A stretch of 64,000 nt of DNA, from contig JAVBSH010000055.1 of the NCBI GenBank assembly GCA_031547085.1, positions 3,249 through 67,248 of the forward strand. The letters run 5' to 3'. The translations under genes were made by a program, and so were the position numbers. The stretch comes from Bacteroidales bacterium (lineage in GTDB: Bacteria > Bacteroidota > Bacteroidia > Bacteroidales > UBA4181). Below the pieces are notes generated by a model. It searched no databases, was not told the DNA's origin, and saw only the letters and a list, made by a program, of their open reading frames with translations. This document shows positions 2,659-34,508 of the stretch, piece after piece. Numbering within the stretch: position 1 is the first letter of the stretch; each line of letters opens with the position of its first letter.

Positions 2659-2700
2659 TTTCTAAAGGGTATATTAAAATTTAGGTGCAAAAATAGATAT

Positions 2701-14758: not shown

Positions 14759-14787
14759 CGATCATCAATGGTCGATTACTTAACTTT

Positions 14788-15246: not shown

Positions 15247-15317
15247 AATTGAAATTACAATATTAGCGAAAATCTTTTATTTCCGCTATCTTCGCTCCCT
15301 TAAACCACCATTATTTT

Positions 15318-16523
15318 ATGGAATCAATTCGCAATATATATAAAATCGGGCTTGGCCCCTCGAGCAGTCATACCATGGGACCAAAGTTTGCTGCCGAGCA
15401 GTTCCTCATTGGTTACTCGCAAGCCGATTCATTCCGGGTAACGCTATATGGTAGCCTGGCTGCAACCGGCAAAGGCCATTTGACCGATGTGGCCATCATT
15501 AAAACGCTGTATCCATACCCTGTGGAAATCGTTTGGGAGCCCAAAATTTTCCTACCTTTCCATCCAAATGGGATGAAGTTCGAAGCCATAGACGAAACCG
15601 GGAACGTGACAGGCAGTCGGGTATTTTTCAGCATTGGCGGTGGTGAGATCGTAGAGGAAGGGCAAGCACGTATGGAAAACGTGCAAATGTACGACCTCTC
15701 TACCATGCAGGATATTCTTATATGGTGTGAACAACAGGGACGCACTTATTGGGAATATGTACTTGAGGAAGAGGGCGAAGATATCTGGATGTATCTTGCC
15801 GAAGTGTGGGAAACGATGAAAGCGGCGGTGCAACGCGGCCTTGAAAACGAAGGCGTTTTGCCGGGCGGATTAGGCTTGCAACGCAAGGCTTCGGCATACC
15901 ATGTAAAGGCGTCAGGATATAAGGCTTCACTGAAAAGCCGCGCATTGGTATATGCCTATGCTTTGGCTGTTTCCGAAGAAAACGCAGGTGGAGGAGAGGT
16001 TGTTACTGCACCCACCTGTGGTTCGTCGGGTGTACTTCCAGGTGTGCTGTATCATCTATACAAAAGCTATGAATTTCCTGACAGCAAGATACATAAAGCA
16101 TTAGCTACTGCCGGATTGATTGCCAACATCGTAAAAACCAATGCCTCGATATCAGGAGCACAAGTTGGTTGTCAGGGCGAAATAGGCGTAGCTTGCGCCA
16201 TGACTGCCGCTGCTGCCAACCAGTTATTCGGCGGAAGCGTGGCGCAAATAGAATATGCCGCCGAGATGGGACTCGAACATCATCTCGGATTGACATGTGA
16301 TCCGGTATGCGGCCTGGTACAGATCCCCTGCATCGAACGCAATGCTTTTGCTGCTGTCCGTGCTCTGGATGCCAACTTATATTCAACTCTTTCGGACGGA
16401 GTACATCGTATCAGTTTCGACAAGGTAGTGGAAACCATGCGTCAAACCGGTCACGACCTGCCAAGTCTATACAAGGAGACATCGGAAGGTGGCCTGGCTA
16501 AACAAATAGGAAAGATAGGGTAA
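15318..16523 (+). CDS. sdaA: L-serine ammonia-lyase (iron-sulfur dependent, single chain)
   Basis: 401 aa with IGLGPSSSHTMGP, TGKGH and the APTCGSSG and CQGEIGVAC cysteine motifs. Confidence 0.9.
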   Translation: MESIRNIYKIGLGPSSSHTMGPKFAAEQFLIGYSQADSFRVTLYGSLAATGKGHLTDVAIIKTLYPYPVEIVWEPKIFLPFHPNGMKFEAIDETGNVTGSRVFFSIGGGEIVEEGQARMENVQMYDLSTMQDILIWCEQQGRTYWEYVLEEEGEDIWMYLAEVWETMKAAVQRGLENEGVLPGGLGLQRKASAYHVKASGYKASLKSRALVYAYALAVSEENAGGGEVVTAPTCGSSGVLPGVLYHLYKSYEFPDSKIHKALATAGLIANIVKTNASISGAQVGCQGEIGVACAMTAAAANQLFGGSVAQIEYAAEMGLEHHLGLTCDPVCGLVQIPCIERNAFAAVRALDANLYSTLSDGVHRISFDKVVETMRQTGHDLPSLYKETSEGGLAKQIGKIG

Positions 16524-19853: not shown

Positions 19854-20354
19854 CCGTGATGACAAGCTAAGAAATGAATTAGATGCGTACGTAAGACTTG
19901 CAAATCTACATGCTTTTTTGCAAAAAAACAATTGTCAAAAATCTGTGGAGAATCTTTCGGGCTTTATTCCTGATGGTGGAGATAGAACAAAACCTCATTG
20001 ACCAGATGAACAGGATGCAAAATCAGCAGATGCAAGTCAGATTGTGTTGAATAACCGGAACTAAAGCCGGGAGAATCCGGTGGGTAGAAACACCACTGCT
20101 GAATTTGGTGAAAACGAAGATAAAACGGAAAGGAGGTAAAAATTAGATAGATAGGGCTTCAAGGAAATAATAAATCCGATAAGAAAATTTTGTATGTGCA
20201 TGGTTGCAAAATGCAATCATGAAGTAAAGCGGAAAAATATAGTAACGGAATTGCATCTTTCCGTACATGGTTTTTATATTTTTAATGAAATGCTAATGTA
20301 CCGGTTTCTACACTGTTATTTTATGAGTTTTGTCATATAGCATGTAAAAGTGCA

Positions 20355-22553
20355 TTAAGACATCGGTTCCGCCACCGTATATTGTGAATATACCAGATTA
20401 TAATAATCACCCTTCTTTTCCATTAAAGAATCATGGGTTCCAACTTCTGCTACAAAACCTTTATTTAACACAATGATTTGGTCGGCATTTTTTATTGTGC
20501 TGAGCCGGTGGGCAACAATAACAACCGTTCTGCCTTTGAAGGAATCGTTCAGGGCAGTAACAATCTTGCTTTCGTTTACCGCATCCAACGAGTTGGTGGC
20601 TTCATCCAGAAACAAAAAATCCGGATTGCGATATAATGCCCGCGCGATGAGCAACCGTTGTTTCTGTCCTCCACTAAGTCCCCTGCCTGTTTCGCCGATG
20701 ACTGTTTCATATCCTTTGGGCATTTGATTGATTTCTTCCTCGAACTGGGCAATTTGGCAAGCATTACGAACATTTTCGTAGTCGATCTTCTCGTCGTCGA
20801 GTACGATATTATTGAGAATCGTGTCACTGAATAATTTACCGTCTTGCATGACAACTGCACACATTTTACGCCATGTTCGCAAATTGATATTCTTTATGTT
20901 CATACCACCCATCAAAATTTCTCCATACGAGGGATTATAAAGCCTCAACAAAAGTTTTAAAAGAGTGGATTTTCCGCTGCCGCTTCCACCAACAATGGCC
21001 GTTACTTTGTTTTGTGGAATGGTTAGATGAACATATTGTAGTACCAGAGGTGAATTTTGATGGTATTGAAAACTGATATTTGACAACTTCAAATCCCTGC
21101 TTTCGGGAATAATATTGGTACTGCTGACAGACAGGGCTTCTTCCTCGTCATCCAATTGACGGATTTCGTTGATACGCAAAAAACTGATCTTTGCATATTG
21201 CGCCGAAATGATAAAATTAATGTACTGGCTCAGGGGACCATTCAACATGCCGATGATAAATTGCGTTGAAATCATCACACCAAAAGTGATTTCACCGGCA
21301 ATTACCGCTTTGGCGCAATAGAACACAATAGCCATATTTTTGATGTTCTCTATGAATTGAGCGCCCAAATTTTGGGTGTTGGTAACGGTTAATACCCTTT
21401 TGTTTACTTTGTAGAGCCGGGCCTGTATTTCCTCCCATTTCCAGCGACGATGTTTTTCGTAATTGTAAGTTTTGATATCCTGAATAGCAGACACCGTTTC
21501 CACCCAATAACTCTGGTCTTTGGAGACAATTTCAAAGTATTCCCAATCCAGCTTTTTACGTATATTCAGGAAGAGCAATACCCATAATACATAAAACACA
21601 GAACCAAAAAAGAATATGAAGAATATTATTTTATTATATATCAACAATATGACGCCGAAGATGACGAAAGTAAGCGTGGAGAATACCATTGCCAACGAAT
21701 TGTTCATGATAAAACTTCGTATCCGTTCGTGGTCGCGGGCGCGTTGCAAGATATCTCCCAATATCTTGTTTTCGAAAAATGTAACGGGCAATTTCATCAA
21801 CTTGATTAAGTAGTCTGAAATCAACGAAATATTTACCCGCGAGGTAATATGCAATAAAATCCAATCCCGTAAAATGTTGAATATCGTTATGCTGAACAGT
21901 ATGGAAATATTGCCTATAAGAATCATATTGATAAAACTTATATCCTGTGTTTTGATCCCCACGTCAATAACTGCTTTGGATATAAACGGCAGTACACCCT
22001 GCAACAAAGTAACAACCAGCATGATGACAAGCAGCAAGGTGAAACTTCGCTTATAGGGGACAAAATAGTTGAGCATATTGATCAGGCTTATCTGATGTAC
22101 CCGTCGCTCCTGGGCTGTCAGTTTGAAATCAGCCATCGGTTCAATTGCCAGTAAAACGCCTGTCTTTTCACCTTTTTTGTACCAGCCCTTTTTGAACTCT
22201 TGATGAGTATATTTTATTAACCCTTTCGAAGGGTCGGATACATAGATATACTTTTTTGTTGTATGGTAAACCACTACAAAATGATTGTCATTCCAATGGA
22301 TGATGGCCGGTAGAGGCACTTGAGAAATGATGTCGTCAAGGGTACACTTGATGGGAAGGCTTCTTAACCCGATACTTTCGGCTCCTGTCGTTAAATCCAG
22401 CAGGGAAACACCTTCTTTTGAGAGACCGCACTTATCCCGCAGGTATTGCAGGGAGTAAAACCGTCCGAAATGTTTGGCGATAATCTTGAGACTGGCGGGT
22501 CCACAATCTTGCGAATCCATTTGGTATTCTACGGGAAATCGTCTAAGTATCAT
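20355..22553 (-). CDS. Peptidase-containing ABC transporter (PCAT; C39 peptidase, TMD and NBD)
   Basis: 732 aa with a C39 triad (Q11..C17 in QMDSQDCGPASL, H91 in NHFVVVY, D107 in VSDPSKG). Also Walker A GGSGSGKST, signature LSGGQKQR, Walker B FLFLDEATN and H-loop VAHRLSTI. Confidence 0.93.
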   Translation of the reverse strand: MILRRFPVEYQMDSQDCGPASLKIIAKHFGRFYSLQYLRDKCGLSKEGVSLLDLTTGAESIGLRSLPIKCTLDDIISQVPLPAIIHWNDNHFVVVYHTTKKYIYVSDPSKGLIKYTHQEFKKGWYKKGEKTGVLLAIEPMADFKLTAQERRVHQISLINMLNYFVPYKRSFTLLLVIMLVVTLLQGVLPFISKAVIDVGIKTQDISFINMILIGNISILFSITIFNILRDWILLHITSRVNISLISDYLIKLMKLPVTFFENKILGDILQRARDHERIRSFIMNNSLAMVFSTLTFVIFGVILLIYNKIIFFIFFFGSVFYVLWVLLFLNIRKKLDWEYFEIVSKDQSYWVETVSAIQDIKTYNYEKHRRWKWEEIQARLYKVNKRVLTVTNTQNLGAQFIENIKNMAIVFYCAKAVIAGEITFGVMISTQFIIGMLNGPLSQYINFIISAQYAKISFLRINEIRQLDDEEEALSVSSTNIIPESRDLKLSNISFQYHQNSPLVLQYVHLTIPQNKVTAIVGGSGSGKSTLLKLLLRLYNPSYGEILMGGMNIKNINLRTWRKMCAVVMQDGKLFSDTILNNIVLDDEKIDYENVRNACQIAQFEEEINQMPKGYETVIGETGRGLSGGQKQRLLIARALYRNPDFLFLDEATNSLDAVNESKIVTALNDSFKGRTVVIVAHRLSTIKNADQIIVLNKGFVAEVGTHDSLMEKKGDYYNLVYSQYTVAEPMS

Positions 22554-22559
22554 GTCGAT

Positions 22560-23903
22560 TTATTGTTCAGTTTGATTTCGAATTTCATCACTTGTGACAG
22601 AATATTTCAAATTATCAAACAGTCTTTGAATTAATCGTCTGTTTTTCGTGATGATTTCGGCCATCCCTTTAGATTCGAAATTCAAATCCAATTTAGCACC
22701 ATAGTTTGTTGTGCTTCCATCGGGAAATTCTACGATAACCCTGTAAGCATCCATATCACTACGCTCCGTCTTTATCTTGCTTGTAATGTGCGAAATAGAT
22801 TTAACTACCCCTCTTATCGAACCGAACTCATCATAAGGATAATTATTTAATTTCACATTCACTTGCTGCCCGATTTCCACCTTTCCAGAGCCATACGAAG
22901 GAATCATCACTTCGCCAACAAGTTCATTTTTCAGCGGAATAACGGAATACAATTCCTGTCCGGCCTGTACAAAACTGTTTTGCCTCCAGAAATCCAAATA
23001 TTCCAGTTTACCGTCAATCGGGGATACAGTTACAAAATTTTGTTTCCAAACAGCAATACGGTTGATTAATTCGTTTTTTCCGGTGATTAATTCTAACCAA
23101 AACCGGTGAACGGTTTCTTTTTCTTCCGTTTTCAACTGTTCTATATCCATAGTATTCTTTTTTATCCTCGACTGAATGGACGATAATTCGGTTTGTAAAT
23201 TGTGGTATGCTTCAGTTGCTGTCAAGTGTTCGGCTTTTTGCCTGACATACTCCGCCTCGCTCATTGCTTTTTGCACAAAAATGATACTGTCTTTGGAAAG
23301 CTGCTCCGAAGAAATTTTCAATATCTCGTTCCTTATGGATATTTCATTTTGAATGTTACTCAAAATTTTATTGTCCATTTCAATCTGGCTCCTTAAACTG
23401 TTACAGCGTATCCCATAAGTATTGGAGCTCATGAAATAGTGGTATTGTTGATGCGCTTTATAAAAATTGCTGTACGCAGGGCTGATCTCACCCAATTCCA
23501 ATTGTTCGTTTAAAGGAATTTCGGATATTTTCGTAATATCGCAGGAATTGATGATGGAATCAACCGTGTTCGCATCCCGGTAATCTGTGGAACTGTATAT
23601 ATAGGAAATGACAGTGCCTTTTGTTACCGTGTTGCCATCTTCTTTCAGTAAATGCAATCTCCCGTTGTTGCTGGAAACAAGCCGCACAGGCGCTGTCAAC
23701 GCGGTAATGGATATCTGGCCGTCAACCGTATCGTGGTACCTGACTATAAAACCAATGGTGAAAATAATGGCAATCAATATGATGGTAATGATGGCGGCGT
23801 AAATAGAAGTTTGGGTCGGCATACGGTCGATGATGGATTGTACCTCTTCGCTCCGTTCATCATCCTCTATATGGCCTGTATTTTCATTTTCAATTGTGCT
23901 CAT
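22560..23903 (-). CDS. HlyD-family membrane fusion protein
   Basis: 447 aa with a single N-terminal TM segment, a long coiled-coil centre and a beta-barrel-like C-terminus. It starts 7 nt upstream of the PCAT gene. Confidence 0.85.
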   Translation of the reverse strand: MSTIENENTGHIEDDERSEEVQSIIDRMPTQTSIYAAIITIILIAIIFTIGFIVRYHDTVDGQISITALTAPVRLVSSNNGRLHLLKEDGNTVTKGTVISYIYSSTDYRDANTVDSIINSCDITKISEIPLNEQLELGEISPAYSNFYKAHQQYHYFMSSNTYGIRCNSLRSQIEMDNKILSNIQNEISIRNEILKISSEQLSKDSIIFVQKAMSEAEYVRQKAEHLTATEAYHNLQTELSSIQSRIKKNTMDIEQLKTEEKETVHRFWLELITGKNELINRIAVWKQNFVTVSPIDGKLEYLDFWRQNSFVQAGQELYSVIPLKNELVGEVMIPSYGSGKVEIGQQVNVKLNNYPYDEFGSIRGVVKSISHITSKIKTERSDMDAYRVIVEFPDGSTTNYGAKLDLNFESKGMAEIITKNRRLIQRLFDNLKYSVTSDEIRNQTEQ

Positions 23904-23919
23904 TTCCTATTTGTTTAAA

Positions 23920-25407
23920 TTAATGAAGTAACACTTCCGTTAATTCCTTATTTTCTACAAAATCGAACAAGGTCTTGTTACGCAAATTGTAATAACCGGC
24001 CCAAACCTCTTTCATTGCTGTGTAATACCTGTTCATGGAAGCAAATACTTCCTTCTGGGCGATTCCTAATTCGTAAATGGATAATTTTCCCAAATCAAAT
24101 TTACTGACAGAAACCTCGTATTGTTTCATTGCCAGTTCGAAAGATGAACGGGCAATAGTCATCAGGTTCACGTTGTGATTATAATTGTTGACTAATTCCT
24201 TCAAATCGTTGTAAAAAAGGATGTATTCCCGGTCGATTTCCATCAAGGAAATTTCATAATTATTTTGTGCTATTTTGAAGTTGTTTTTATTAACACCCCA
24301 TTGAAAAACAGGAATTTGTAACCCGATGGTCAGTGATTGCTGCGATGCCATGTTTTTGTAAGCGTCTCTAAATACAGGAGCGTATTGATTCGTACCCAAG
24401 TTAAAACTGATGTTACTCGTAAAACGGTTCTGGTATTTGGCATTGTGGATTTGCTTTTCGGCTTCTATACGTCTTATTTGCTGCCCCAAAGCGAAGGAAT
24501 TATTATTTTCGGCATATTCCATTACCATGTCGAAATTCAAAAAATCCGGAAGGTCGAAATCAGGGCTTTCAATTGCATAATGTTTAAAAATATCAGCTAT
24601 GCCAAGGTAGTTCAACAAACTGCGAAGTGAAACTTCATATTCCTTTTTATAGTTTTCGGAAGCAAAACGGTCGTTTACCGCCTGTATTTTCATTTGTAGA
24701 TATTCATTTTCCGCCATTCGCCCGTTGTCGAATTTTATAGTACTTGCCTGTAGAAGTGTATCCGAAATGGCTTCGCTTTTCAAAGCAATATCCATTGACA
24801 TCTTTACCAAAAACAAATCCATGTAAAGCAAAATTACTTCACGTTGAATATCCGTGATACTGTTGCAATAATCCTTTGCCGCCTTGATATTCCTTTTTTG
24901 CTCAATATTTTTCGTAAACTTGTAATCAGCTGCGGAACCGCCAAATAACTTTTGACTGTAACCAATGGAAAACGGACGGGTATTAAAGCTCCTTCTCTCC
25001 TCGTTGAATTCATTGAGCATGTTCACGTTGCTTCCGATATTGACGCTGCCACCTGTGATGCCGATCTTTTGCGTGACTGATACGCCCATGCTGCTGTTGT
25101 TTGAAAAATCATCAATATAAGAATAACTGCCATCGGTTGGACTTTGCAATACCTTGTATGAACGATTGAAACTGGCGGGGCTGATATTAATGGCAACAGA
25201 AGGGAGGAATCCCCTTTTGTAATTTTCAAAACTGTAATTGGCATTATCATAATTGAGTTTTGCTTTGATAGCTCCTGGCGCGGCAAAACAATATTCGGTC
25301 AGTATTTTATTCAAGCTTATCTCAAAAGTTTGACAATTAATTTTGCTATTGCATACGAGCAATAGCAAAATTGTTGAAAAATATTTACAAAACCTTGTCA
25401 GGTTCAT
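23920..25407 (-). CDS. TolC-family outer-membrane efflux protein
   Basis: 495 aa with a signal peptide and a two-fold repeat of helical/beta segments typical of OEP proteins. It is the first gene of the TolC-HlyD-PCAT operon. Confidence 0.8.
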   Translation of the reverse strand: MNLTRFCKYFSTILLLLVCNSKINCQTFEISLNKILTEYCFAAPGAIKAKLNYDNANYSFENYKRGFLPSVAINISPASFNRSYKVLQSPTDGSYSYIDDFSNNSSMGVSVTQKIGITGGSVNIGSNVNMLNEFNEERRSFNTRPFSIGYSQKLFGGSAADYKFTKNIEQKRNIKAAKDYCNSITDIQREVILLYMDLFLVKMSMDIALKSEAISDTLLQASTIKFDNGRMAENEYLQMKIQAVNDRFASENYKKEYEVSLRSLLNYLGIADIFKHYAIESPDFDLPDFLNFDMVMEYAENNNSFALGQQIRRIEAEKQIHNAKYQNRFTSNISFNLGTNQYAPVFRDAYKNMASQQSLTIGLQIPVFQWGVNKNNFKIAQNNYEISLMEIDREYILFYNDLKELVNNYNHNVNLMTIARSSFELAMKQYEVSVSKFDLGKLSIYELGIAQKEVFASMNRYYTAMKEVWAGYYNLRNKTLFDFVENKELTEVLLH

Positions 25408-25418
25408 ATAAAATGTTT

Positions 25419-25426
25419 TATTTTTG
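25419..25426 (+). promoter_or_regulatory. Candidate Bacteroidota -7 promoter box (TAnnTTTG) for the plus-strand island genes
   Basis: TATTTTTG lies 28 nt upstream of the ATG at 25454, in the 46-bp divergent gap. A second match, TAATTTTG, is at 25439-25446. Confidence 0.3.
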
Positions 25427-25453
25427 CAAAAATAGAAATAATTTTGAATTGAA

Positions 25454-26398
25454 ATGACGGATATATCTAAACTGGTTGGTCATATTCTATCAAATGTCTG
25501 TTTAGTAGACACTACAGGCTTATATTACGGGAAAGCAGGAATATCTTTAGCCCTGTTTGAGGCCTCCGGGTATCTTCAAGATGAAGATATGGAAGATAAA
25601 GCGTTCAATATTCTTCGGGAAGCATTAATTCTCAAAAGCGGGGATTTTAGTTTTGAAAATGGATTATCCGGAATTGGGTACGTTTTGTGTTACCTGATGG
25701 AGAATAAATTCATAGAGGCTGATTTTGATGAAATATTCGGCGAACAGTATGAAAAAACTGTAAAAAGCCTCGAAGATATAGAAAAAAAACCTGAAAGACT
25801 GTTGAACACATTACAGGTTATCTACTTTCTATCTTCGGTAAGGAAGATAAAACCAAATGATGAACGGCTGCAAAAAATCATCAAAAAAATTTTTGAAGGC
25901 TTGGAATTGTTTTTCATAGTCCAATTTCAGGATTTTATTGACATTCACTACATCAATGACAAAATGGCGGTTTTGAGGATTTATGAAACTTACCTTAAAT
26001 TGGTCAATTTTGCGGGTTACACTCACTTTTCGCATTCGTTATTAGAAAATTACGTCGATTTATACCGAACGGGTAGAGCGGTAAGTTCAATAGCTATCGG
26101 ATATTATTTAGGGATGTTGTTAAGAAACAACGCGATAACAGGCTATGACGATGTTGTAAAAAATCATATAGAGAACGGAATCAGGGATATACACGAAGAT
26201 ATGCTTTCACCAGGAGAAAAAGTAGATGTCACGAAATTATTAACTGATGTCAAAAACAACGGAATCGCGCAGCTGCCGGATACAAAGATCGATGATCTGC
26301 CAAAAAACGTAGGCTTGGGTTCCTGTTCCTTAGACTACAAGAAAGGGTTGTCGCGGCTTCTCTTATTTTGTGTAAACAAACAAGCCGAACTTTTATAA
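25454..26398 (+). CDS. LanC-like (alpha/alpha-toroid repeat) protein lacking recognisable zinc-ligand motifs
   Basis: 314 aa. The N-terminal repeats LYYGKAGISLALFE and ENGLSGIGYVLCYL resemble LanC GxxG helix-repeat motifs. No WCxG or CHG motifs were seen. Assignment is tentative. Confidence 0.45.
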   Translation: MTDISKLVGHILSNVCLVDTTGLYYGKAGISLALFEASGYLQDEDMEDKAFNILREALILKSGDFSFENGLSGIGYVLCYLMENKFIEADFDEIFGEQYEKTVKSLEDIEKKPERLLNTLQVIYFLSSVRKIKPNDERLQKIIKKIFEGLELFFIVQFQDFIDIHYINDKMAVLRIYETYLKLVNFAGYTHFSHSLLENYVDLYRTGRAVSSIAIGYYLGMLLRNNAITGYDDVVKNHIENGIRDIHEDMLSPGEKVDVTKLLTDVKNNGIAQLPDTKIDDLPKNVGLGSCSLDYKKGLSRLLLFCVNKQAELL

Positions 26399-26408
26399 TA
26401 TTCAAATT

Positions 26409-27230
26409 ATGAGTGAAATATCAGTCATCCTACCAGTATGTAACCATGAAAAATATGTACATGATACCATAAAAAGTATTCTGAATCAATCTTTTGAGGA
26501 TTTTGAACTCATTCTCGCCGATGATGGCTCAACAAACGATTCATTATCCGTTGTCAAATCATTTGAAGATAGCCGCATTCGTATCATAGCCCGTAATGAT
26601 TTACACAATCGCACCAACGCATTAAATGCAGGTATAGAATCAGCTTCGGGTAAATACATAGCAATGATGGAAGCAAATCATATCATGCACGTTGACCGGT
26701 TGAAAATTCAACATGCCTTTATGGAGGCAGAACCTTCAATTACCGTATGTAGTGCACATATAAAATATTTTGATGCTCAAAAGCAGGAAAATAACGCTAT
26801 CAAACTACGAGTGCCCGGTGGTTTGATAGAAAATCCGCTGTTGTTCTTTTTAAGTGGTAATTGTATCATACACCCAACTGTGATGATACGAAATCAATTT
26901 TTAAAGAAGCACCAATTGCTATACGAAAATTATCCCGACGCGGAAAACTTTAAACTTTGGACTGAAATTGCCAAACGCGGAGGACAATTTCATATGGATA
27001 CGCAACAGTTGCAGTACGGTCAAGTAACAAACAAACAAGATGATGGGCTAAAACGGCAATCATCCGATCATATTATCAACGAAATAGTTGAATTTCTGGC
27101 AAAAAGGCATCCTGAACTGGAAGTTATCCTGGCAAATTTCAAAAAATTGCAGGATAAAGAAACGATGACACACTTGGATATAGTCGGATTTTTCCATCAT
27201 TTCTTCACGAAAAATAAAGATAAGTTATGA
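26409..27230 (+). CDS. Family-2 glycosyltransferase with a non-canonical DxD region
   Basis: 273 aa with ISVILPVCNHEKYVHDTIKSILNQSFEDFELILADDGSTNDS (GT-A N-terminus). The expected xDxDD is replaced by YIAMMEANHIMH. Confidence 0.8.
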   Translation: MSEISVILPVCNHEKYVHDTIKSILNQSFEDFELILADDGSTNDSLSVVKSFEDSRIRIIARNDLHNRTNALNAGIESASGKYIAMMEANHIMHVDRLKIQHAFMEAEPSITVCSAHIKYFDAQKQENNAIKLRVPGGLIENPLLFFLSGNCIIHPTVMIRNQFLKKHQLLYENYPDAENFKLWTEIAKRGGQFHMDTQQLQYGQVTNKQDDGLKRQSSDHIINEIVEFLAKRHPELEVILANFKKLQDKETMTHLDIVGFFHHFFTKNKDKL

Positions 27231-27469
27231 CCGGAATACATATCGGAAAATTAATACGCACCAAATTGGAAGACGATAGACGCTCGGTGGAATGGCTCGC
27301 AAATAACATTGGCTGCGTACGAGACAATGTTTACAAGATACTTAAGAAAGAATCCATTGACACTGAACTTTTAATGCGCATATCCGTGGCGCTTGAAACG
27401 AATTTCTTCCGCTACTATTCTGATATTTATTATGATAAGATGAAAAAGAAAACAGACAATACTGATTAG
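27227..27469 (+). CDS. Small XRE-like helix-turn-helix regulator
   Basis: 80 aa with IGKLIRTKLEDDRRSVEWLANNIGCVRDNVYKILKKESIDTELLMRISVALETNFF. Its ATG overlaps the GT2 stop (ATGA). Confidence 0.65.
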   Translation: MTGIHIGKLIRTKLEDDRRSVEWLANNIGCVRDNVYKILKKESIDTELLMRISVALETNFFRYYSDIYYDKMKKKTDNTD

Positions 27470-27479
27470 GAAAGGTCAC

Positions 27480-27525
27480 ATATACAAAATATATACATTT
27501 TGTATATATTTTATATACAGTATAT
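27480..27525. promoter_or_regulatory. Palindrome array (five ATATAC/GTATAT hexamers); candidate operator
   Basis: ATATACAAAAT-ATATAC-ATTTTGTATAT forms 11-bp perfect arms (27480-27490 and 27497-27507). ATATAC-A-GTATAT follows at 27513-27525. It lies between the HTH gene stop (27469) and the 171-aa gene start (27611). Confidence 0.45.
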
Positions 27526-27610
27526 TGATTTCACTTATTGCGATTTAACTTAATTTTGAATCACTAAATTTTAATATTTTGTTGTATAACCTTAATAAAA
27601 AATCGATATC

Positions 27611-28126
27611 ATGAAGAACTTGACAAAAAAGAGCCTTGATGAATTGGCAAAAACGATGAGTTTGATCCCAGAAGATGAAAGGGATGGTTATTGGGGAATG
27701 TATAGTAATGACTGCTTTTGGAGATGCGTTTCTTATTTAGCGACAGGTGATCGTAGTGAAACTGCAGCTGCAAGGTTTGCAGAATCTTATTGGAGTGGAG
27801 AATTAGGATACTATGGTGCAATGAATCACCTATCTGTTAACCAAGGAGATATGTCATTAGACAGTGCTATATCTTTTAAAAATTCTTATGCCGGTTCCAT
27901 CAACATGAGCAGCATCTGCATTCAACTTGTGGGCAACAGTGTTGGGCATGCGCTTGTTTATCAGGGAGCGGGTAAGAAGAATATACTTGGTCAGACACAC
28001 GATGTCTATTATTATTATGATCCACAAAACGGGACAAATGTCGAATCGTTAATTAAACACAAAACTATAACAGAGTTAGAAGCTTCATCGAATTCATCCG
28101 CTTCGTCGAATTCGTCAAATCCATAG
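27611..28126 (+). CDS. Leader-bearing small protein with a C39/papain-like Cys-His-Asp motif set and a Ser/Asn tail
   Basis: 171 aa. The N-terminus MKNLTKKSLDELAKTMSLIPEDERDGYWG resembles a bacteriocin-type leader helix. C35 lies in SNDCFWRC, H113 in VGHALVY and D137 in YYYDPQNG. The transporter's own C39 domain has the same pattern (DCGP, NHFVVVY, VSDPSKG). The tail is SSNSSASSNSSNP. Confidence 0.6.
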   Translation: MKNLTKKSLDELAKTMSLIPEDERDGYWGMYSNDCFWRCVSYLATGDRSETAAARFAESYWSGELGYYGAMNHLSVNQGDMSLDSAISFKNSYAGSINMSSICIQLVGNSVGHALVYQGAGKKNILGQTHDVYYYYDPQNGTNVESLIKHKTITELEASSNSSASSNSSNP

Positions 28127-28151
28127 GTCTTAAAAAAAATAAAAAAAAACA

Positions 28152-29339
28152 ATGAATATACTTTTGATTTTGATTTTAAATTGTTTTTTGGCGAATGGGA
28201 TAAATGAGGGTTCAAAAAAAACAAAGAGCTATAAGCAAGAGACAAGTTCAAGGATTGTCAATGCAAGAGCTACTTCTGTATACGTATCCAACAACAATGT
28301 GTATATTGTTGGATATCAACACTCTGAAGACAAAAAAACAGTTGCTAAGCTTTGGAAAAACGGTACTGAGTATGACCTTACCGATGGGACTAATGATGCT
28401 TTCGCCTTGTCTGTTTTTGTATCCGGTAATGATGTATATGTGGTGGGTTACGAAAATTCCGATTCTCATTTTTTTAGGCCCACGGCTGGTTTGATTGTGA
28501 AGTCATTTGTTGCCAAATTATGGAAAAACGGTATCGCGCAAAATCTCAGTAATAAAGATGTTAAATATTCGATGGCGCGATCTGTTTTCGTATCCGGTGA
28601 TGATGTATACGTAGCTGGAATGGAAGTTGAACCCAACGAGAAAGATTCATTGTTCACAGTCGCTAGATTATGGAAGAACGGTGTTGTACAAAATCTTTCT
28701 GATAATTGTATGGGTATTGCCAGATCTGTTTTTGTATCCGGCAACGATGTGTATGTGGCGGGTAGTGGAAAATATGAATGTTCACCGAACGCTAAATCAT
28801 ATGTTGCTAGATTGTGGAAAAATGGCATAGCACAGAACCTTAGTGACGGAGCTAAAATGACTTGGGCCCATTCAGTTTATGTCTTCAATGATGATACTTA
28901 TGTAGCAGGAATTGAATATCCAGAATCTGATTTAAATAAAGAAACTCCGGTATTGTGGAAAAACGGTATTGTCCAATATATGAATATTGCCAACATAACT
29001 AGTAATACAGGGTGTGACAATGTTACAGGTTCGGCCAATTCCATTTGCGTTTCTGAAAGTGGGGATGTGTACGTGGTCGGCTTCATAAATTGCGGTAACA
29101 TTTATTCTGTATTGTGGAAAAACGGCATTGCACAGCTTATCAATCAGGATGGTACATTTCAGATGATTGAGGAGTTGGCTCGTAATAACTCTGTTTTTGT
29201 ATCTGGAGAAGATGTATACATAACGGGAAGTGAACATGGGGTAAAAATTGCTGCCATCTGGAAAAATAATATCTTGCAAGAGCTTACAGAGTATCATCCA
29301 GATGAAATAATGATTATTCGGCAACAGTTATCTGAATGA
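28152..29339 (+). CDS. Seven-repeat LWKNG protein (probable 7-bladed beta-propeller), N-terminal hydrophobic anchor/signal
   Basis: 395 aa with seven copies of (A/V)xLWKNGxxQxL...A(R/H)SVFVSGxDVYVxG (LWKNG x6 plus IWKNN; DVYVxG-type x7). The N-terminus is MNILLILILNCFLANG. Confidence 0.7.
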   Translation: MNILLILILNCFLANGINEGSKKTKSYKQETSSRIVNARATSVYVSNNNVYIVGYQHSEDKKTVAKLWKNGTEYDLTDGTNDAFALSVFVSGNDVYVVGYENSDSHFFRPTAGLIVKSFVAKLWKNGIAQNLSNKDVKYSMARSVFVSGDDVYVAGMEVEPNEKDSLFTVARLWKNGVVQNLSDNCMGIARSVFVSGNDVYVAGSGKYECSPNAKSYVARLWKNGIAQNLSDGAKMTWAHSVYVFNDDTYVAGIEYPESDLNKETPVLWKNGIVQYMNIANITSNTGCDNVTGSANSICVSESGDVYVVGFINCGNIYSVLWKNGIAQLINQDGTFQMIEELARNNSVFVSGEDVYITGSEHGVKIAAIWKNNILQELTEYHPDEIMIIRQQLSE

Positions 29340-30490
29340 ATATTCTTTTTCTCTCAAGATACGATCCTACAGTGATTAATAACTGGTCGGGTACCCTATA
29401 TTACATGTATCATAAATTAAAAGAAAAACATCATGTTGAAATCATAGGAACTGAAATACTGCATCAACTCACTTTTTTTTCAAATGGAAATTTCCATAAT
29501 GAGTTTTTCATATATAGCAATCGATATGTAAAAAATATTGGACTTCTACTATCAGAACGTATAAATATTGTTAAATACGATCTGGTTTTTTTGGGCGATT
29601 TAATTTTTTCCTCTTTAGATATTTGTATACCTTTTGTTCATCTCAGCGATATGACTTATGAGCAGGTAAATATATATTTAAAAAAATCAGACGAGAGAAA
29701 TATTGAACCTTGTATGTGTCTCGAGAAATTAATACTTAACAACTACTCAAAAATCATTTATACTTCCGAATGGATAAAACAAAAAGCAATAGAAACCTAT
29801 AATATCGACCCCAATAAAATTGCGGTGGTTGAATTGGGTGCGAATATACCAACACCAACAGATTATTCTATTGATATTGATACGGATATTTGCCGGTTGG
29901 TTTTCATTGGAAGAAACTGGGAGAAAAAAGGTGGCGATAAACTCTTGCAAGCATACCGGATATTGAAAACAGAAGGATTCCCATGTTCACTTACGATTAT
30001 CGGTTCCACACCAAAAGAAATTCCGGATGCCGACGAGGATTTAACCATTATTCCATTTCTTAATAAAGAGAAGAAAGAGCATTTGAATAAATTGTGTAAA
30101 ATACTTTCAAAGGCGCACTTTCTTGTTTTGCCAACCGAATTTGATGCTTATGGCATTGTTTTTTGTGAAGCGTCGGCTTACGGTGTTCCGTCTATAGCCT
30201 CAAATGTTGGCGGAGTTGGGCAACCTGTACGCGAGGGGAAAAATGGGTTCTTACTACCGCCCGATGCAACAGCACAGGACTATGCCGAAAAAATCAAAAG
30301 CGTTTTTAACGACCGGGAAAAATATTTCAAGTTACGTGCTTCCTCCCGCTGTGAATTTGAAACGCGGTTGAACTGGGATGTTTGGGGCGAACGGGTGAAT
30401 CAGATACTGGAGGATACTGTAAAAGGGTGGAAAGGACAAAAAGAAATGTGTGAAAACAATAGACTTATGTCATTTGATATTGAAAATTAA
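29336..30490 (+). CDS. GT4-type (GT-B) glycosyltransferase
   Basis: 384 aa with FLVLPTEFDAYGIVFCEASAYGVPSIASNVGGVGQPVREGKNGFLL (EX7E-type region). Its ATG overlaps the stop of the repeat protein (ATGA). Confidence 0.85.
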   Translation: MNILFLSRYDPTVINNWSGTLYYMYHKLKEKHHVEIIGTEILHQLTFFSNGNFHNEFFIYSNRYVKNIGLLLSERINIVKYDLVFLGDLIFSSLDICIPFVHLSDMTYEQVNIYLKKSDERNIEPCMCLEKLILNNYSKIIYTSEWIKQKAIETYNIDPNKIAVVELGANIPTPTDYSIDIDTDICRLVFIGRNWEKKGGDKLLQAYRILKTEGFPCSLTIIGSTPKEIPDADEDLTIIPFLNKEKKEHLNKLCKILSKAHFLVLPTEFDAYGIVFCEASAYGVPSIASNVGGVGQPVREGKNGFLLPPDATAQDYAEKIKSVFNDREKYFKLRASSRCEFETRLNWDVWGERVNQILEDTVKGWKGQKEMCENNRLMSFDIEN

Positions 30491-30548
30491 TGTATTTAAA
30501 ATGCTCCGTAACAATTAATTTGACATAATCTCTAATATAGCTAAATTA

Positions 30549-31712
30549 ATGAATATAATCTTTCTTGCAAGGGATGACCCTAAAGACATTCACAATTGGT
30601 CGGGAACCTTGTATCATATTTATCATAAATTAATAGAAAAACATCATGTTGAAATCATAGGTACTGAGTTGTTCGATCAACTTTTTGTTTTCAGGAATGG
30701 AAATTTTCCCCAAGATTTTTTCTTGCTTCAGGATCGATACGTGAAAAATCTTGGCAGGTTGTTATCGGAACGTATCAATGCACTCAAATTTGATTTGCTT
30801 TTTTTCGGAGATTTATTTTTTATCCCTTTAGACATTGACATCCCTTTCGTTCATTTCGGCGATCTGACTTACGAACAATTAAAGGTATATTATGTAAAAG
30901 AAGATGAGCGGGATATAGAGCCTTGTATCAACCTTGAGAAAATATTACTGAACACATCTTCTAAAATTATCTATTGTTCCAAATGGATAAAAAACCGGGT
31001 AGTTGAAATCTATAACATTAACCCCAATAAGATTGACGTGGTTGAAATGGGTGCAAATATTCCTACACCGCAGAACTATTCAATCGAAATCAATATGGAT
31101 GTTTGCCGGTTGGTCTTTATTGGAATAAATTGGAACAGAAAGGGTGGTGACATTGTTATGCAGGTATTTCAACATCTGAAAAAGGAAGGATTTCCTTGTA
31201 CGCTTACCATTATTGGTTCATCTCCAAGGAATAGACCAGAAGACAATCATGGCCTTACTGTTATTCCATTTCTTGATAAAGCCAAGAAGGACCACTTGAA
31301 GGTCTTAAACGACATTCTTAATGAGTCGCATTTTCTTGTTTTACCTACACGCTTCGATGCTTATGGTATCGTTTTCTGTGAAGCATCCGCGTATGGAGTT
31401 CCATCAATTGCGGCGGATGTTGGCGGAGTTGGACAGCCTGTATGCGAAGGGAAAAACGGTTTCTTACTACCACTTGATGCAACAGTACAAGACTATGCTG
31501 AAAAAATCAAAAGCGTTTTTAACGATCGTGAAAACTATATCCGGTTACGTGCATCTTCACGCCGGGAATTTGAAACGCGATTAAATTGGGATGTTTGGGG
31601 CGAACGGGTGAATCCTATATTGGAAAGTACTGTAAAAGAGTGGAAAGAACAAAAAATGCGTGAAGATAATTCAAGTCAAATAATAAGCACAATTAAAAAT
31701 GGAAAAAATTGA
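30549..31712 (+). CDS. GT4-type glycosyltransferase (tandem paralogue)
   Basis: 387 aa, collinear with 29336-30490 and roughly 70 percent identical by eye. The C-terminal 100 aa are nearly identical. Confidence 0.85.
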   Translation: MNIIFLARDDPKDIHNWSGTLYHIYHKLIEKHHVEIIGTELFDQLFVFRNGNFPQDFFLLQDRYVKNLGRLLSERINALKFDLLFFGDLFFIPLDIDIPFVHFGDLTYEQLKVYYVKEDERDIEPCINLEKILLNTSSKIIYCSKWIKNRVVEIYNINPNKIDVVEMGANIPTPQNYSIEINMDVCRLVFIGINWNRKGGDIVMQVFQHLKKEGFPCTLTIIGSSPRNRPEDNHGLTVIPFLDKAKKDHLKVLNDILNESHFLVLPTRFDAYGIVFCEASAYGVPSIAADVGGVGQPVCEGKNGFLLPLDATVQDYAEKIKSVFNDRENYIRLRASSRREFETRLNWDVWGERVNPILESTVKEWKEQKMREDNSSQIISTIKNGKN

Positions 31713-31716
31713 AATC

Positions 31717-32139
31717 ATGATGAAAAAAAAATCTTGGATAACAGTCGCTTGCTTTGCAACACTGTTTTTGGCATGTGTTTCATTCAAGACTCATACCAAT
31801 TCCGTAAACAATATAGACCAAATTATTGGAGTGTGGAAAATTGTTTCTCCTGAGTTAAGCGGAGAAGGTGAACAGGAAAATATTAAAATTATCACAAAAG
31901 ATCGTTTTATTTGGACGCATACAATCAACAGCATGATAATATTTTCGCTCGGAGGCACCTATTCTTTTGATGGAGAAACATATACTGAAATTATTAAATT
32001 CGGGACACCAAACCAGCGAACCGCATTTGGAAAAAAGGTAGTTTATAAAGTCCGGTTCGAGGACAAAAAAATGCATATCATTGGGGGGTACGAAAATGAT
32101 CATCGAGTTTTCAATGAAATATGGGAACGAATTGAATAA
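31717..32139 (+). CDS. Lipocalin-like small lipoprotein
   Basis: The start is MMKKKSWITVACFATLFLACVSF (lipobox FLAC). The IIGVWKIVS and RFIWTHT pattern is typical of Bacteroidales lipocalin-like domains. It begins 4 nt after the GT4 stop. Confidence 0.6.
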   Translation: MMKKKSWITVACFATLFLACVSFKTHTNSVNNIDQIIGVWKIVSPELSGEGEQENIKIITKDRFIWTHTINSMIIFSLGGTYSFDGETYTEIIKFGTPNQRTAFGKKVVYKVRFEDKKMHIIGGYENDHRVFNEIWERIE

Positions 32140-34036
32140 CAGTTACATTTCCGAAAATAGAGTAGACCTTTCGGTCATTGTTCCGGTATTCAATGCGGAA
32201 AAATTTTTACCTGCATGTATTGATTCATTGATACATCAGGGTGATCTTAGCCTTGAGATTATTCTGGTGAATGACGGTTCTACAGATCGTTCAGGAGAAA
32301 TTGCCGATGAATATGCCAATAAAGACAGTCGGATAAGGGTGATTCATCAAGGAAACGGGGGCGCCTCGGCGGCTCGTAATACCGGATTGGAACTGGCACA
32401 AGGTGAATATATTGCTTTTGTTGACAGCGATGATTGGGTTAAAGAAAAATCATTGTGTGAATTATATCATGAAGCGATCAAGCATCAGGCAGATATAGTG
32501 ATGGGCAAGATTGAGGTTTTGAATCAAAGTGAAAATATGTCTCTTCATCTTGAACCTGCTCCCAAGGGAATCAAGGACATTCCGTCAGGTAAAGAATGCT
32601 TCATCAACCTCGTTAAAGCAAAGGCTTATTCACCTATGGCATGTAATTACATATACCGTAGGGAATATATTGAAACAATACAAGCCCGTTTTGAAGAAGG
32701 CATCATGGCTGAAGATGAATTGTGGACTTGCATCGTTCTGTGCCAAGCAAAAAAGATGGTTATTGTTGACATTACTTTTTATTATTACCGCCTGCGAGAA
32801 GGTTCGGTCATGCACACAACAAATCCCAAACGGCGTTTAAAATCTTTGTTCCGGGTCACTGACCAATTGTTTGAATTTACTGATCGTTTCGACTTTAAAG
32901 GAGAAGACGGAGAATTGAAAAATTGGTTGTATGTTAATATCTATAGGATTTATTCCATAACCTTTACTGTACTTTCACGCATAAAGGACAGTTCAATTAT
33001 TGTGCCGGCAAATCATTTGGATCGTTTTTGGAGAAATTGCCCGGAAATGATGCCCGAGCCGCAAAAAGCCTGCAATGAATATTTCAGAGTTTCAGAAGCC
33101 GGTTTTAAAAAATATACTGATTGGCGTACATCGGAATGGGTGGCATCCATTGGTTCTCAAATTTCAACCGGAAAGAAACTAATGTTGGTATACAATACTC
33201 TCTGGAACGGGGAATTAACCTTAAAAATCGGGGATATTCCTGAAAAATGGCTTATTACCACTGACCGGCGCTATTTCCAGCAAGCAGATGCGGTTGTATT
33301 CCATCTTCCCGACCTGCGACAGGTACTGGACATTGATTTAGACAAGCCGGAAGGACAGATATGGGTTGGCTGGTACTTAGATTCAGAAAAAAATTATCCA
33401 TGGATTAGGTCGCCGGAAATGAAGGAAACATTCGACCTCTGGATGAGTTACCGTCAGGATGCTGACGTGGTGTATCCATATTACCAGTACGGATATCCCA
33501 AACTATTCATGCAACAAATTATTCATGCTCAAAAACAGGATAAAGCATGCTTGTTTGTTCCTAACCAACTAAACCATGCTTTTATGGAGCTGATGAAGCT
33601 TACTGCAATAGATGTTTTTGGAATGGGATACAACAACCAACAACCGCATTCGTTTCGCAGAACTGAAAAGTTAGATATTTATAGAAAATATAAGTTTGTC
33701 ATCGCATTCGAAAATGCGATTGACATAGACTATATTACGGATATTTTTTATGACCCGCTCATTGCCGGTTCAGTACCCATCTATTTAGGAGCACCCAATA
33801 TTAATGACTTTGCACCGGGCGACCATTGTTTTGTAGATGTACGGCAATTTGAGAATCCCAAAGCATTAGCAGATTTCATCAATACCTGTTATGATGATGA
33901 ACAACTGTATGCTAATTTTTTTGAATGGAAAAACCAACCATTAAAAGAGTCCTTTTTACAAAAAATAGAAAAGCAGAAAGATCACCCTTTAGTACGTTTA
34001 TGTCGGCAGGTTGAAGAAAAAATCAACCAAATATAA
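32096..34036 (+). CDS. Bifunctional glycosyltransferase: N-terminal GT2 fused to a C-terminal GT10-like fucosyltransferase domain
   Basis: The GT2 part has LSVIVPVFNAEKFL, LVNDGSTDRS and YIAFVDSDDWV. The C-terminal part has KFVIAFENAIDIDYITDIFYDPLIAGSVPIYLGAPNI, matching the alpha-1,3-fucosyltransferase FENS..YVTEK motif. The start is uncertain (TTG 32081, ATG 32096 or ATG 32114). Confidence 0.8.
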   Translation: MIIEFSMKYGNELNNSYISENRVDLSVIVPVFNAEKFLPACIDSLIHQGDLSLEIILVNDGSTDRSGEIADEYANKDSRIRVIHQGNGGASAARNTGLELAQGEYIAFVDSDDWVKEKSLCELYHEAIKHQADIVMGKIEVLNQSENMSLHLEPAPKGIKDIPSGKECFINLVKAKAYSPMACNYIYRREYIETIQARFEEGIMAEDELWTCIVLCQAKKMVIVDITFYYYRLREGSVMHTTNPKRRLKSLFRVTDQLFEFTDRFDFKGEDGELKNWLYVNIYRIYSITFTVLSRIKDSSIIVPANHLDRFWRNCPEMMPEPQKACNEYFRVSEAGFKKYTDWRTSEWVASIGSQISTGKKLMLVYNTLWNGELTLKIGDIPEKWLITTDRRYFQQADAVVFHLPDLRQVLDIDLDKPEGQIWVGWYLDSEKNYPWIRSPEMKETFDLWMSYRQDADVVYPYYQYGYPKLFMQQIIHAQKQDKACLFVPNQLNHAFMELMKLTAIDVFGMGYNNQQPHSFRRTEKLDIYRKYKFVIAFENAIDIDYITDIFYDPLIAGSVPIYLGAPNINDFAPGDHCFVDVRQFENPKALADFINTCYDDEQLYANFFEWKNQPLKESFLQKIEKQKDHPLVRLCRQVEEKINQI

Positions 34037-34076
34037 CCGTCAAAAACAAATTCAACAAACTGGAAGTAACAGTATT

Positions 34077-34508
34077 TTATTTAAACAAGGAATCAACAAA
34101 CTCATATTTATTAAACACCAACAGGTCCTCCATTTTTTCACCAACCCCGATATATTTAACCGGTATTTTGAACTGGTCGGAAATTCCCAGGATAACGCCG
34201 CCTTTGGCCGTGCCGTCAAGTTTGGTGAGCGCCAGTGCGGTTACTTCAGTAGCCAGGGTAAATTTTTTGGCCTGTTCGAATGCATTTTGTCCGGTAGAAC
34301 CGTCGAGTACCAGTAAAACTTCGTGGGGCGCTTCGGGTATCACCTTTTGCATCACTTTCTTGATCTTCGAAAGCTCATTCATCAGGTTCACTTTGTTGTG
34401 CAAACGTCCGGCAGTGTCAATGATCACCACGTCGGCATCGTTGGCTTTGGCTGAACTGATGGTATCGTAAGCCACCGATGCGGGATCGGCCTTTTCGGGT
34501 GTTTTATC
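34077..34508 (-). pseudogene. ftsY: 5'-truncated ftsY (SRP receptor) remnant: C-terminal ~143 codons only
   Basis: It reads ..ADPASVAYDTISSAKANDADVVIIDTAGRLHNKVNLMNEL...LTKLDGTAKGGV...YIGVGEKMEDL. This covers SRP-GTPase G3-G5 but has no G1 P-loop. The frame closes at a TAA (complement of 34509-34511). Only 114 bp remain before the GH92 stop. Confidence 0.8.

Follow-up and report, generated by a model that had tools for sequence, protein, structure and literature searches.

Can an exporter that removes double-glycine leaders carry, as its own cargo, a peptidase related to the domain that does the removing? The question is raised by a gene of a Bacteroidales bacterium (GTDB lineage UBA4181; assembly GCA_031547085.1) that encodes a 171-amino-acid (aa), 18.8-kDa protein at positions 27611 to 28126 (+ strand) of a 64,000-nucleotide (nt) stretch of contig JAVBSH010000055.1 (positions 3,249 to 67,248), called the window here. 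An initial annotation, made from the letters alone, described a bacteriocin-leader-like N-terminus, a catalytic motif set resembling that of C39 peptidases, and a Ser/Asn tail; it proposed either (a) an exported papain/C39-fold peptidase toxin whose tail is a glycan acceptor or (b) a free-standing accessory leader peptidase. Retranslation of the open reading frame (ORF) matched its protein sequence exactly. We present here an analysis of this gene, its homologues, and their loci. The gene very probably encodes leader-bearing cargo of a peptidase-containing ATP-binding cassette (ABC) transporter (PCAT), with a C39-related peptidase domain, and is annotated here as a leader-bearing C39-like cysteine peptidase gene (predicted toxin precursor). 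With more reserve, we favor a fuller reading, in which a polymorphic C39-like peptidase toxin is exported by the PCAT and its immunity partner is located in the envelope.

Leader, catalytic residues, and family

The leader comprises residues 1 to 30 (MKNLTKKSLDELAKTMSLIPEDERDGYWGM; 27611 to 27700, + strand), as delimited by alignment with relatives whose leaders end in GG or GA. The double-glycine character that had been noticed in residues 1 to 29 is borne out by homology to canonical GG leaders in those relatives, and we agree that the window protein has no GG, GA, or GS. The cleavage site had been sought at D25-G26 or W28-G29. The family alignment moves it to G29-M30 (27695 to 27700, + strand), which corresponds column for column to the GG, GA, or GM of relatives and is homologous to the double-glycine cleavage dipeptide. 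Conservation counts here and below refer to 120 aligned members. The column of residue 29 holds Gly in 117 members, and that of residue 30 holds Gly in 63, Met in 32, and Ala in 11, with a few Lys, Leu, Arg, Gln, and Ser. The resulting dipeptides are GG (62 members), GM (31), GA (11), GS (1), and G[KLRQ] (9). With the slash marking the predicted cleavage site, relatives' junctions such as ...NSVVGG/YDPNDCFGRC and ...RSIIGG/YKDDCFWRC compare with ...DGYWGM/YSNDCFWRC in the window protein. Because GG, GA, and GM occupy the same columns, G29-M30 is in register with the cleavage dipeptide, and position −1 is Met.

With M30 at −1, residues I19 (−12), E23 (−8), Y27 (−4), and G29 (−2) all fit the leader recognition pattern of ComA and LahT, for which GG, GA, and GS are the canonical dipeptides (PMC6363468). 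R24 falls at −7 and is off this pattern, which has a hydrophobic residue there; Gln occupies −7 in 30 of the 62 GG-class relatives. A canonical GG leader has Gly at −2 and Gly, Ala, or Ser at −1, and the window protein departs from it at M30. TIGR04149, the curated GG-leader model of the Cytophaga-Flavobacterium-Bacteroides (CFB) group, matched 32 of 101 relatives (best E value, 3.6e-11) and gave no match to the window protein. Within the G[MKLRQ] class (43 of 117 members), pairwise identity is 0.55 in the leader and 0.31 in the core. The variant leader is more conserved than the enzyme and is therefore under selection, not decaying.

The leader also behaves as a module: it is joined to two or more unrelated cargo classes (GG/xFYFDxxGNF... 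and GG/..NPYTxAEF..GGYVEGMGY), and the peptidase core is found in addition behind long Gly/Ser/Tyr linkers that follow GG. For most members, the distance from the predicted cleavage site to the conserved Cys is only 4 residues. Processing of the window protein is predicted after M30, which would yield a mature protein of 141 aa and 15.3 kDa beginning at Y31. We considered a PCAT specialized for G-M sites and found it unsupported, as one locus (L002; related loci and proteins are given L and P numbers) has both GG and GM cargo with a single PCAT. No systematic difference was seen, in the compared loci, between the C39 domains of PCATs with GM cargo and those with GG cargo. The window protein resembles GG-leader cargo such as class II microcins, bacteroidetocins, and TIGR04149 proteins in its hydrophobic residues at −4 and −12, Glu at −8, Gly at −2, and a PCAT, membrane fusion protein (MFP), and outer membrane protein (OMP) encoded nearby. 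Unlike that cargo, which consists of peptides of <10 kDa, it is predicted to be a folded 15-kDa enzyme domain, and about a third of its family has Met (or Lys, Gln, Arg, or Leu) at −1.

The catalytic residues C35 (NDCFWRC), H113 (VGHALVY), and D137 (YYYDPQNG) are present as first described. C35-F-W-R-C39 (27713 to 27727, + strand) contains the predicted nucleophile, at the N-terminus of helix 35-45, and a second Cys at i+4. The predicted catalytic His, H113 (27947 to 27949, + strand), lies on a β-strand, and D137-P138-Q139 (28019 to 28027, + strand), with the predicted third triad residue, ends the next strand. H113 aligns with the catalytic His, and D137-P138 with the DP, of both the StbD-CT/Cpe1 toxins discussed below and C39 domains. 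Homologues keep all three positions (C35 in 114 of 120, H113 in 115, and D137 in 104), along with G29 (117), P138 (112), C39 (103), and Q139 (92). Distant members have Ser, Val, or Ala at the C39 position. Cys replaces D137 (FCPQ) in P0011, P0015, and P0016, among others, and P0016 also has Tyr at the C35 position; such members may be inactive or mechanistically altered variants.

AlphaFold2 models had pLDDT values of 79.5 (alignment of 18 sequences) and 87.6 (101 sequences), with 85 to 97 in the core. DSSP assignment starts helix 35-45 at C35, includes H113 in strand 113-125, and ends strand 128-137 with D137. As modeled, this placement of the three residues is a papain-like arrangement. Profile searches, which the initial annotation had proposed for confirming such a fold, were uninformative for the window protein alone; PF03412 (Peptidase_C39) did not match it at an E value of ≤1 or ≤10. 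They were more telling for relatives. Among the 101 members on which the Pfam and NCBIfam tallies rest, the weak Pfam matches that recurred most often were to Peptidase_C39_2 (9 members), C70 (8), C39 (6; best E value, 9.4e-4), CHAP (5), Gln_amidase (PF15644; 4), and Amidase_6 (2), all of them papain-fold families. Weak NCBIfam matches were to a C39-ABC model (10 members) and YopT (4).

A large protein database contains 17 homologues with 37 to 46% identity, all labeled hypothetical and, where an organism is named, assigned to Bacteroidales, Bacteroidia, or Porphyromonadaceae. A family hidden Markov model (HMM) was searched exhaustively against 1.84 billion cluster representatives (50% identity clusters) and retrieved 198 at an E value of ≤1e-3 and 105 at ≤1e-10. 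Named genomes with relatives belong to Bacteroidaceae, Tannerella, Alloprevotella, Proteiniphilum, and Bacteroides, and one leader-only match lies in a metagenome-assembled genome labeled Bacillota. Judged by these searches, the family is unannotated, spans about 200 clusters at 50% identity, and is essentially confined to Bacteroidales.

Relation to C39-like toxins

Searched against PDB chains, the family HMM matched 8SSM_B (E value, 7.3e-7), 12AJ_A (9.5e-7), 8SSK_A (2.8e-6), and 9L5U_A (1e-4). Entries 8SSM and 12AJ are CdiA-CT, 8SSK is StbD, and 9L5U is Cpe1. The next matches, AvrRpt2 (0.065) and a C39-like peptidase (0.29), were not significant. In hhalign comparisons, the family aligned with three full-length Cpe1/StbD-type toxins from plasmid records at E values of 1e-7 to 6e-7 (probability, 92 to 94%), and these toxins aligned with transporter C39 domains at 8e-10 (96%). 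The direct comparison of the family with transporter C39 domains gave E values of ~0.008 to 0.009 (4 to 5%), which are not significant; negative controls against LanC-like proteins gave 0.3 to 0.6 (0.1 to 0.2%).

The family-versus-C39 alignment nevertheless places C35, H113, and D137 in register with C17, H91, and D107 of the PCAT, and the Cys-to-His spacing of 78 residues compares with 74 in that transporter, as had been noted. The earlier statement that the motif set mirrors the transporter's own C39 domain therefore stands for residue order. It does not stand on direct statistics (E value, ~0.008), and the link is transitive, through the toxin clade. Assignment to Peptidase_C39 was rejected, because alignment with the cognate PCAT C39 domains is not significant, and only the description "C39-related through the toxin clade" is retained. 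A lead toward Tox-PL1/Gln_amidase (NC-H-DxQ, compared with NDC-H-DPQ here) was not adopted; it has 4 subthreshold matches among the 101 members. The best reading of the profile comparisons places the core, as a divergent member, in the C39/C70 branch of papain-fold peptidases, with the Cpe1/StbD-CT toxins as its nearest relatives. The protein shares with the C39 domains of PCATs and ABC transporter maturation and secretion (AMS) proteins (ComA, LahT, and PCAT1; PF03412) the order and context of Cys, His, and Asp-Pro; unlike them, it is not fused to an ABC transporter and is itself the predicted substrate.

Cpe1 of Escherichia coli, delivered by a type VI secretion system (T6SS), and StbD-CT of Citrobacter, delivered by contact-dependent growth inhibition (CDI), are demonstrated antibacterial toxins that cut GyrB and ParE within their ATPase domains, at a Gly-Gly motif, have ComA and LahT as their closest structural neighbors, and are neutralized by small immunity proteins (Cpi1 and StbI) that bind the peptidase domain (PMC12136450; bioRxiv 10.64898/2026.05.07.723447). 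All 155 surveyed Cpe1-type genes were T6SS or CDI linked, and Bacteroidota was not among the listed phyla (PMC12136450). The window protein resembles these toxins (also EvpQ and TsaP) in its ~140-aa domain, Cys...His...Asp-Pro triad, and significant profile similarity. It likewise has a C-x3-C pair at the nucleophile, C35/C39, corresponding to Cys183/Cys187 of StbD-CT, for which a possible redox switch was weighed (bioRxiv 10.64898/2026.05.07.723447). A candidate protective partner gene directly downstream and a polymorphic, horizontally mobile context are further shared features. The differences lie in delivery, by a predicted GG-type leader and PCAT/HlyD/TolC-like export instead of a PAAR, VgrG, Rhs, or CdiA fusion; in the Bacteroidales lineage; and in a cassette with LanC-like, GT2, and GT4 genes.

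Polymorphic toxins that contain "Tox-PL-C39" domains were predicted by Zhang et al. (2012; PMC3482391). In the excerpts of that work, the Tox-PL-C39 and Tox-PL1 proteins are papain-fold toxins encoded beside immunity genes, in Bacteroidetes among other groups, as is proposed for the present family with its DPQ motif; unlike it, they form the C-termini of large T6SS, type VII secretion system (T7SS), Rhs, or CDI polypeptides, and the same excerpts do not describe a GG-leader/PCAT route for Tox-PL domains (PMC3482391). No description of a C39-like toxin delivered by a GG leader and PCAT was found in the literature searched. Free-standing Cpe1/StbD-type genes, each followed by a small ORF, were also observed on one Salmonella IncF plasmid and two Gloeothece plasmids (L013, 1063 to 1674; L014, 1192 to 1683; L015, 1186 to 1677). 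Their products start with AGAGG(N/R)W, which resembles the StbD autoprocessing site.

Partner genes and the export cassette

The gene directly downstream (28152 to 29339, + strand) encodes a 395-aa candidate envelope immunity protein with a hydrophobic N-terminus that lacks a clear lipobox. Its seven WKN(G) motifs lie ~50 residues apart, a spacing that would suit a 7-bladed propeller. Its only Pfam match, to RIP, is short and probably spurious, and the other fetched loci yielded no homologue. Every leader-cargo gene in the examined loci is directly followed by a partner gene. The partners are 226 to 799 aa long, and most have a hydrophobic or signal-peptide N-terminus. A locus has up to two divergent peptidase copies, each with its own partner.

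Across loci, cargo class correlates with partner class. Papain-like peptidase cargo is paired with WHPE-type, BspA-type leucine-rich repeat (LRR), GLUG, STN/FecR_C plus CarbopepD_reg, or TonB_C proteins or with the window's WKN protein. The xFYFD cargo (~160 aa) is paired with signal-peptide proteins of the YLNDS..YLMN.SPL type, and the NPYT cargo is paired with 600-aa lipoproteins that have an erythromycin-esterase-like domain; in L010, its partner is instead a 77-aa hydrophobic protein. These two other cargo classes, both uncharacterized, are found in L002 (8338 to 14922), L010, L011, and L012 (10001 to 14401). In L008, three tandem WHPE-type partners stand beside a 42-codon toxin remnant. 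A shared trafficking module, swappable payloads, cognate neighbors, and orphan arrays together make up a polymorphic toxin/immunity signature.

Domains of the TonB machinery occur in some partners of peptidase cargo, either STN/FecR_C plus CarbopepD_reg_2 or TonB_C (L016, 8628 to 9428; P0101; P0075; L017, 193 to 1315), and two TonB_C-type genes also lie upstream of P0001. The sequences of these partners hint at decoy immunity or at a toxin that uses or targets TonB-dependent transport. Several ORFs are chimeric: P0119 joins a LanC-like N-terminus to the peptidase core, and in P0083, P0075, and P0101 a partner protein is fused to a truncated toxin N-terminus. Frameshifts or deletions within cassettes are the probable cause, and the chimeras confirm gene adjacency independently.

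The same partners can be read in another way. The protein could be a PCAT-exported, non-toxic enzyme of peptidase, amidase, or transglutaminase type that processes or attaches envelope or surface proteins of the producer, with the signal-peptide partner (WKN, LRR, GLUG, or STN/TonB_C) as its substrate or docking partner, possibly together with GT2 and GT4. The partners are large, surface-type repeat proteins and not typical small immunity proteins; GT2, GT4, and LanC-like genes are conserved in the cassette; and a few members weakly match CHAP and Amidase_6. Such an enzyme fits less well with one leader and PCAT serving several unrelated cargo classes that each tend to have their own partner type, with the orphan tandem partner arrays and toxin remnants of L008, or with a low-GC island whose peptidase has toxins as its closest characterized relatives. 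We regard it as unlikely, though as an explanation to be kept in view.

The exporter genes lie upstream. They encode the PCAT (20355 to 22553, − strand), an ABC exporter with an intact N-terminal C39 domain (Q11, C17, H91, and D107; PF03412 E value, 1.5e-34); an HlyD-family MFP (22560 to 23903, − strand); and a TolC-like outer membrane efflux protein (OEP; 23920 to 25407, − strand). The four C39 residues are invariant in the compared PCATs, and the PCAT of L001 is 91% identical to that of the window. These observations bear on reading (b), in which a free-standing peptidase would cleave the GG leaders of other cargo in trans and so supplement or replace the PCAT's C39 domain. Homology to GG-specific peptidases and a location among GG-leader cargo genes (L002) would suit that role. 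The protein, however, bears an export leader itself, occurs in up to two divergent copies per locus with a cognate partner each, and has a core whose fast divergence (0.31 identity) is not that of a housekeeping maturation enzyme. The PCAT keeps all the catalytic residues of its own C39 domain, and no other leader-bearing cargo was found in the window. An accessory leader peptidase is accordingly very unlikely.

A LanC-like protein (25454 to 26398, + strand) and a family 2 glycosyltransferase (GT2; 26409 to 27230, + strand), both conserved cassette members, are followed by an 80-aa helix-turn-helix (HTH) protein (Cro/C1-like, weak match; 27227 to 27469, + strand) directly upstream of the toxin gene. 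Downstream of the WKN partner gene are two tandem paralogues of a family 4 glycosyltransferase (GT4; 29336 to 30490 and 30549 to 31712, + strand); a GT4 gene is likewise a conserved cassette member. A scan of related loci with an alignment of close homologues covered 7 loci. The cassette, consisting of a LanC-like gene, GT2, one or more pairs of leader-cargo and partner genes, GT4, and PCAT/HlyD/OEP genes, recurs in L001, L002, L006, L012, and L016 and in part in L004 and L009. No PAAR, VgrG, Rhs, or CdiA gene was found among the annotated neighbors of the cassette in the window or related loci. In alignment, the LanC-like proteins keep two GxxG-type repeats and have no invariant Cys or His, so that they lack the conserved Cys/His zinc ligands and are not zinc-dependent cyclases. 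L001 contains a second, divergent LanC-like copy (14472 to 15410). No dehydratase (LanB or LanM) was found in the window or related cassettes.

A GG leader, a PCAT, and a GT2 are also the gene set of glycocins. The protein might on that ground be the precursor of a glycocin or another ribosomally synthesized and posttranslationally modified peptide (RiPP), with C35, C39, or Ser residues modified by the LanC-like, GT2, or GT4 proteins and with His and Asp conserved for structural reasons; its activity would then reside in the modified product and not in catalysis. The match to that gene set, the strict synteny of LanC-like and glycosyltransferase genes with the cargo genes, and a leader more conserved than an export signal alone might require all favor this view. 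It is opposed by the significant homology of the His/Asp region to catalytic C39-like toxins; by the variation of C39 (Ser, Val, or Ala) beside near-invariant C35 and H113; by LanC-like proteins that have no zinc ligands in cassettes that have no dehydratase; by a Ser/Asn tail that is not conserved; and by unrelated cargo classes without these Cys residues that use the same cassette. We consider a modified-peptide precursor highly improbable. A 2023 mining study of Bacteroidales RiPPs reported zinc-less LanC-like genes near carbohydrate-active enzymes, and long "precursors" that were each followed by another gene and among which no peptidase was identified (PMC10352776).

The Ser/Asn tail, residues 159 to 171 (SSNSSASSNSSNP; 28085 to 28123, + strand), is encoded by an imperfect 18-nt tandem duplication, as first described: two 17-nt copies, 18 nt apart and 88% identical, lie at 28082 to 28116. 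Tandem Repeats Finder reports a weak period-9 array in the same DNA, and the two N-x-S triplets do fall within the tail. A stretch identical to the tail-coding duplication is present on an independent metagenome contig (L018). Among the aligned homologues, the tail is seen in the window protein alone, and its proposed role as glycan acceptor is therefore unsupported and was rejected. To our knowledge, N-x-S sequons are not the known Bacteroidales glycosylation motif. With GT2 and GT4 conserved in the cassette, something may still be glycosylated. Reading (a) is thus kept as to an exported papain/C39-fold peptidase toxin, which the leader, the core homology, and the toxin/immunity-like locus favor, and given up as to the tail.

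A 17-nt AT-rich inverted repeat (27481 to 27517; 94% complementary, 3-nt spacer) lies between the HTH and toxin genes. Its sequence is not conserved in other loci. Its position is; L016 has a different 18-nt inverted repeat (7926 to 7965) at the same place between genes, and the HTH gene is also present in L016 and L018. From its position and form, the repeat is a candidate operator or attenuator. Farther downstream, the window encodes a 146-aa lipoprotein (31699 to 32139) that is 66% identical to an ORF beside the L008 partner array, and a fusion of GT2 with a GT10 fucosyltransferase (32081 to 34036). All these genes fall within an island of low GC content at ~20.3 to 34.0 kb (20300 to 34050), with 35 to 40% GC compared with 41 to 48% in the flanks. 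Its right edge adjoins a 132-aa ORF resembling the C-terminal part of FtsY (34077 to 34475, − strand), which suggests that the island was inserted beside or within a housekeeping gene. Two other 171-aa ORFs (2143 to 2658 and 2701 to 3216) were considered as paralogues of the toxin gene and rejected; they encode unrelated OmpH/Skp-like proteins. These are tandem periplasmic chaperone genes (2143 to 3216, − strand), and the match in length is coincidental.

Proposed mechanism and significance

The course of events that we infer, from export and cleavage at G-M to toxicity and immunity, would begin with a precursor made in the cytoplasm, whose leader helix would dock on the C39 domain of the PCAT. 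That domain would remove the leader at G29-M30/Y31, a derived site with Met in place of the usual Gly at −1, and the 15.3-kDa mature domain would leave through the ABC/MFP/OMP conduit (PCAT/HlyD/TolC-like). The C35 nucleophile, in its C-x3-C pair, would be completed by H113 and D137 as the triad of a secreted antibacterial peptidase acting on competitors outside the producer cell, and the product of the downstream gene would be the cognate protective partner, located in the envelope. The nucleophile is 4 residues away from the cleavage site, and for this reason the leader might, speculatively, hold the enzyme inactive until export. By analogy with the homologous toxins, the enzyme would cleave a protein that contains Gly-Gly, for which GyrB and ParE are examples. 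Partners located in the envelope point instead to a step in the periplasm or at the surface, with either the target or the interception of the toxin placed there.

Several observations weigh against a PCAT-exported toxin with an envelope immunity partner. The window protein alone has no match in Pfam, NCBIfam, or PDB sequences (phmmer), and Foldseek searches of the PDB with both AlphaFold2 models returned no significant neighbor (best E value, ~0.06 to 0.09); the near-full-length matches were solely to calpain cores and were weak (template modeling [TM] score, ~0.24). The similarity to the toxin clade resides mainly in the His...Asp-Pro half, and the Cys region is aligned with low confidence. 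The oxyanion Gln of C39 peptidases (Cys−6), which is Q11 in the PCAT and is not conserved here, is replaced by the near-invariant leader residue G29, and the D137 position is Cys in 11 of 120 members. G-M is not among the documented PCAT cleavage dipeptides GG, GA, and GS (PMC6363468). Typical Gram-negative PCAT cargo is <10 kDa, and export by the MccV system fell for a 116-aa cargo. Finally, the partners bear signal peptides, are often large, and have unrelated folds, whereas the immunity proteins of Cpe1 and StbD (Cpi1 and StbI) are small and bind the peptidase.

A bolder version, which we hold to be rather improbable, is an undescribed Bacteroidales secretion-competition system in which an exporter that processes Gly-Gly sites now carries, as cargo, a Gly-Gly-specific protease fold, with a zymogen-lock leader, decoy immunity, and tailoring by the LanC-like, GT2, and GT4 proteins. 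A third of the family has changed Gly to Met at −1, which would then shield the leader from sibling toxins before export. The envelope immunity proteins would act as decoys, some of them copying TonB C-terminal domains or the N-terminal (STN/FecR_C) domains of TonB-dependent transporters; given such TonB-like decoys, the TonB-dependent uptake machinery would be the toxin's entry route or its target. Either the cargo or the producer's envelope would be tailored by the LanC-like/GT2/GT4 trio.

Killing by C39-like toxins through cutting of GyrB and ParE was shown only in 2025-2026, and so far only for T6SS and CDI payloads, mostly of Proteobacteria. In the present family, a known toxin fold is combined with a new predicted delivery route, a new lineage, and a new accessory gene set. 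Its natural G-[MKLRQ] sites, 43 in number, provide a handle on the strictness of the −1 Gly requirement in C39 processing, and its cassettes provide one on the role of the widespread zinc-less LanC-like and glycosyltransferase genes beside Bacteroidales PCATs. If the favored reading of a PCAT-exported peptidase toxin is true, it would bring this toxin class into a dominant gut and termite-gut order, provide C39-like toxins with a delivery route that is independent of contact, and enlarge the cargo range of Gram-negative PCATs from peptides of <10 kDa to folded enzymes of 15 to 25 kDa.

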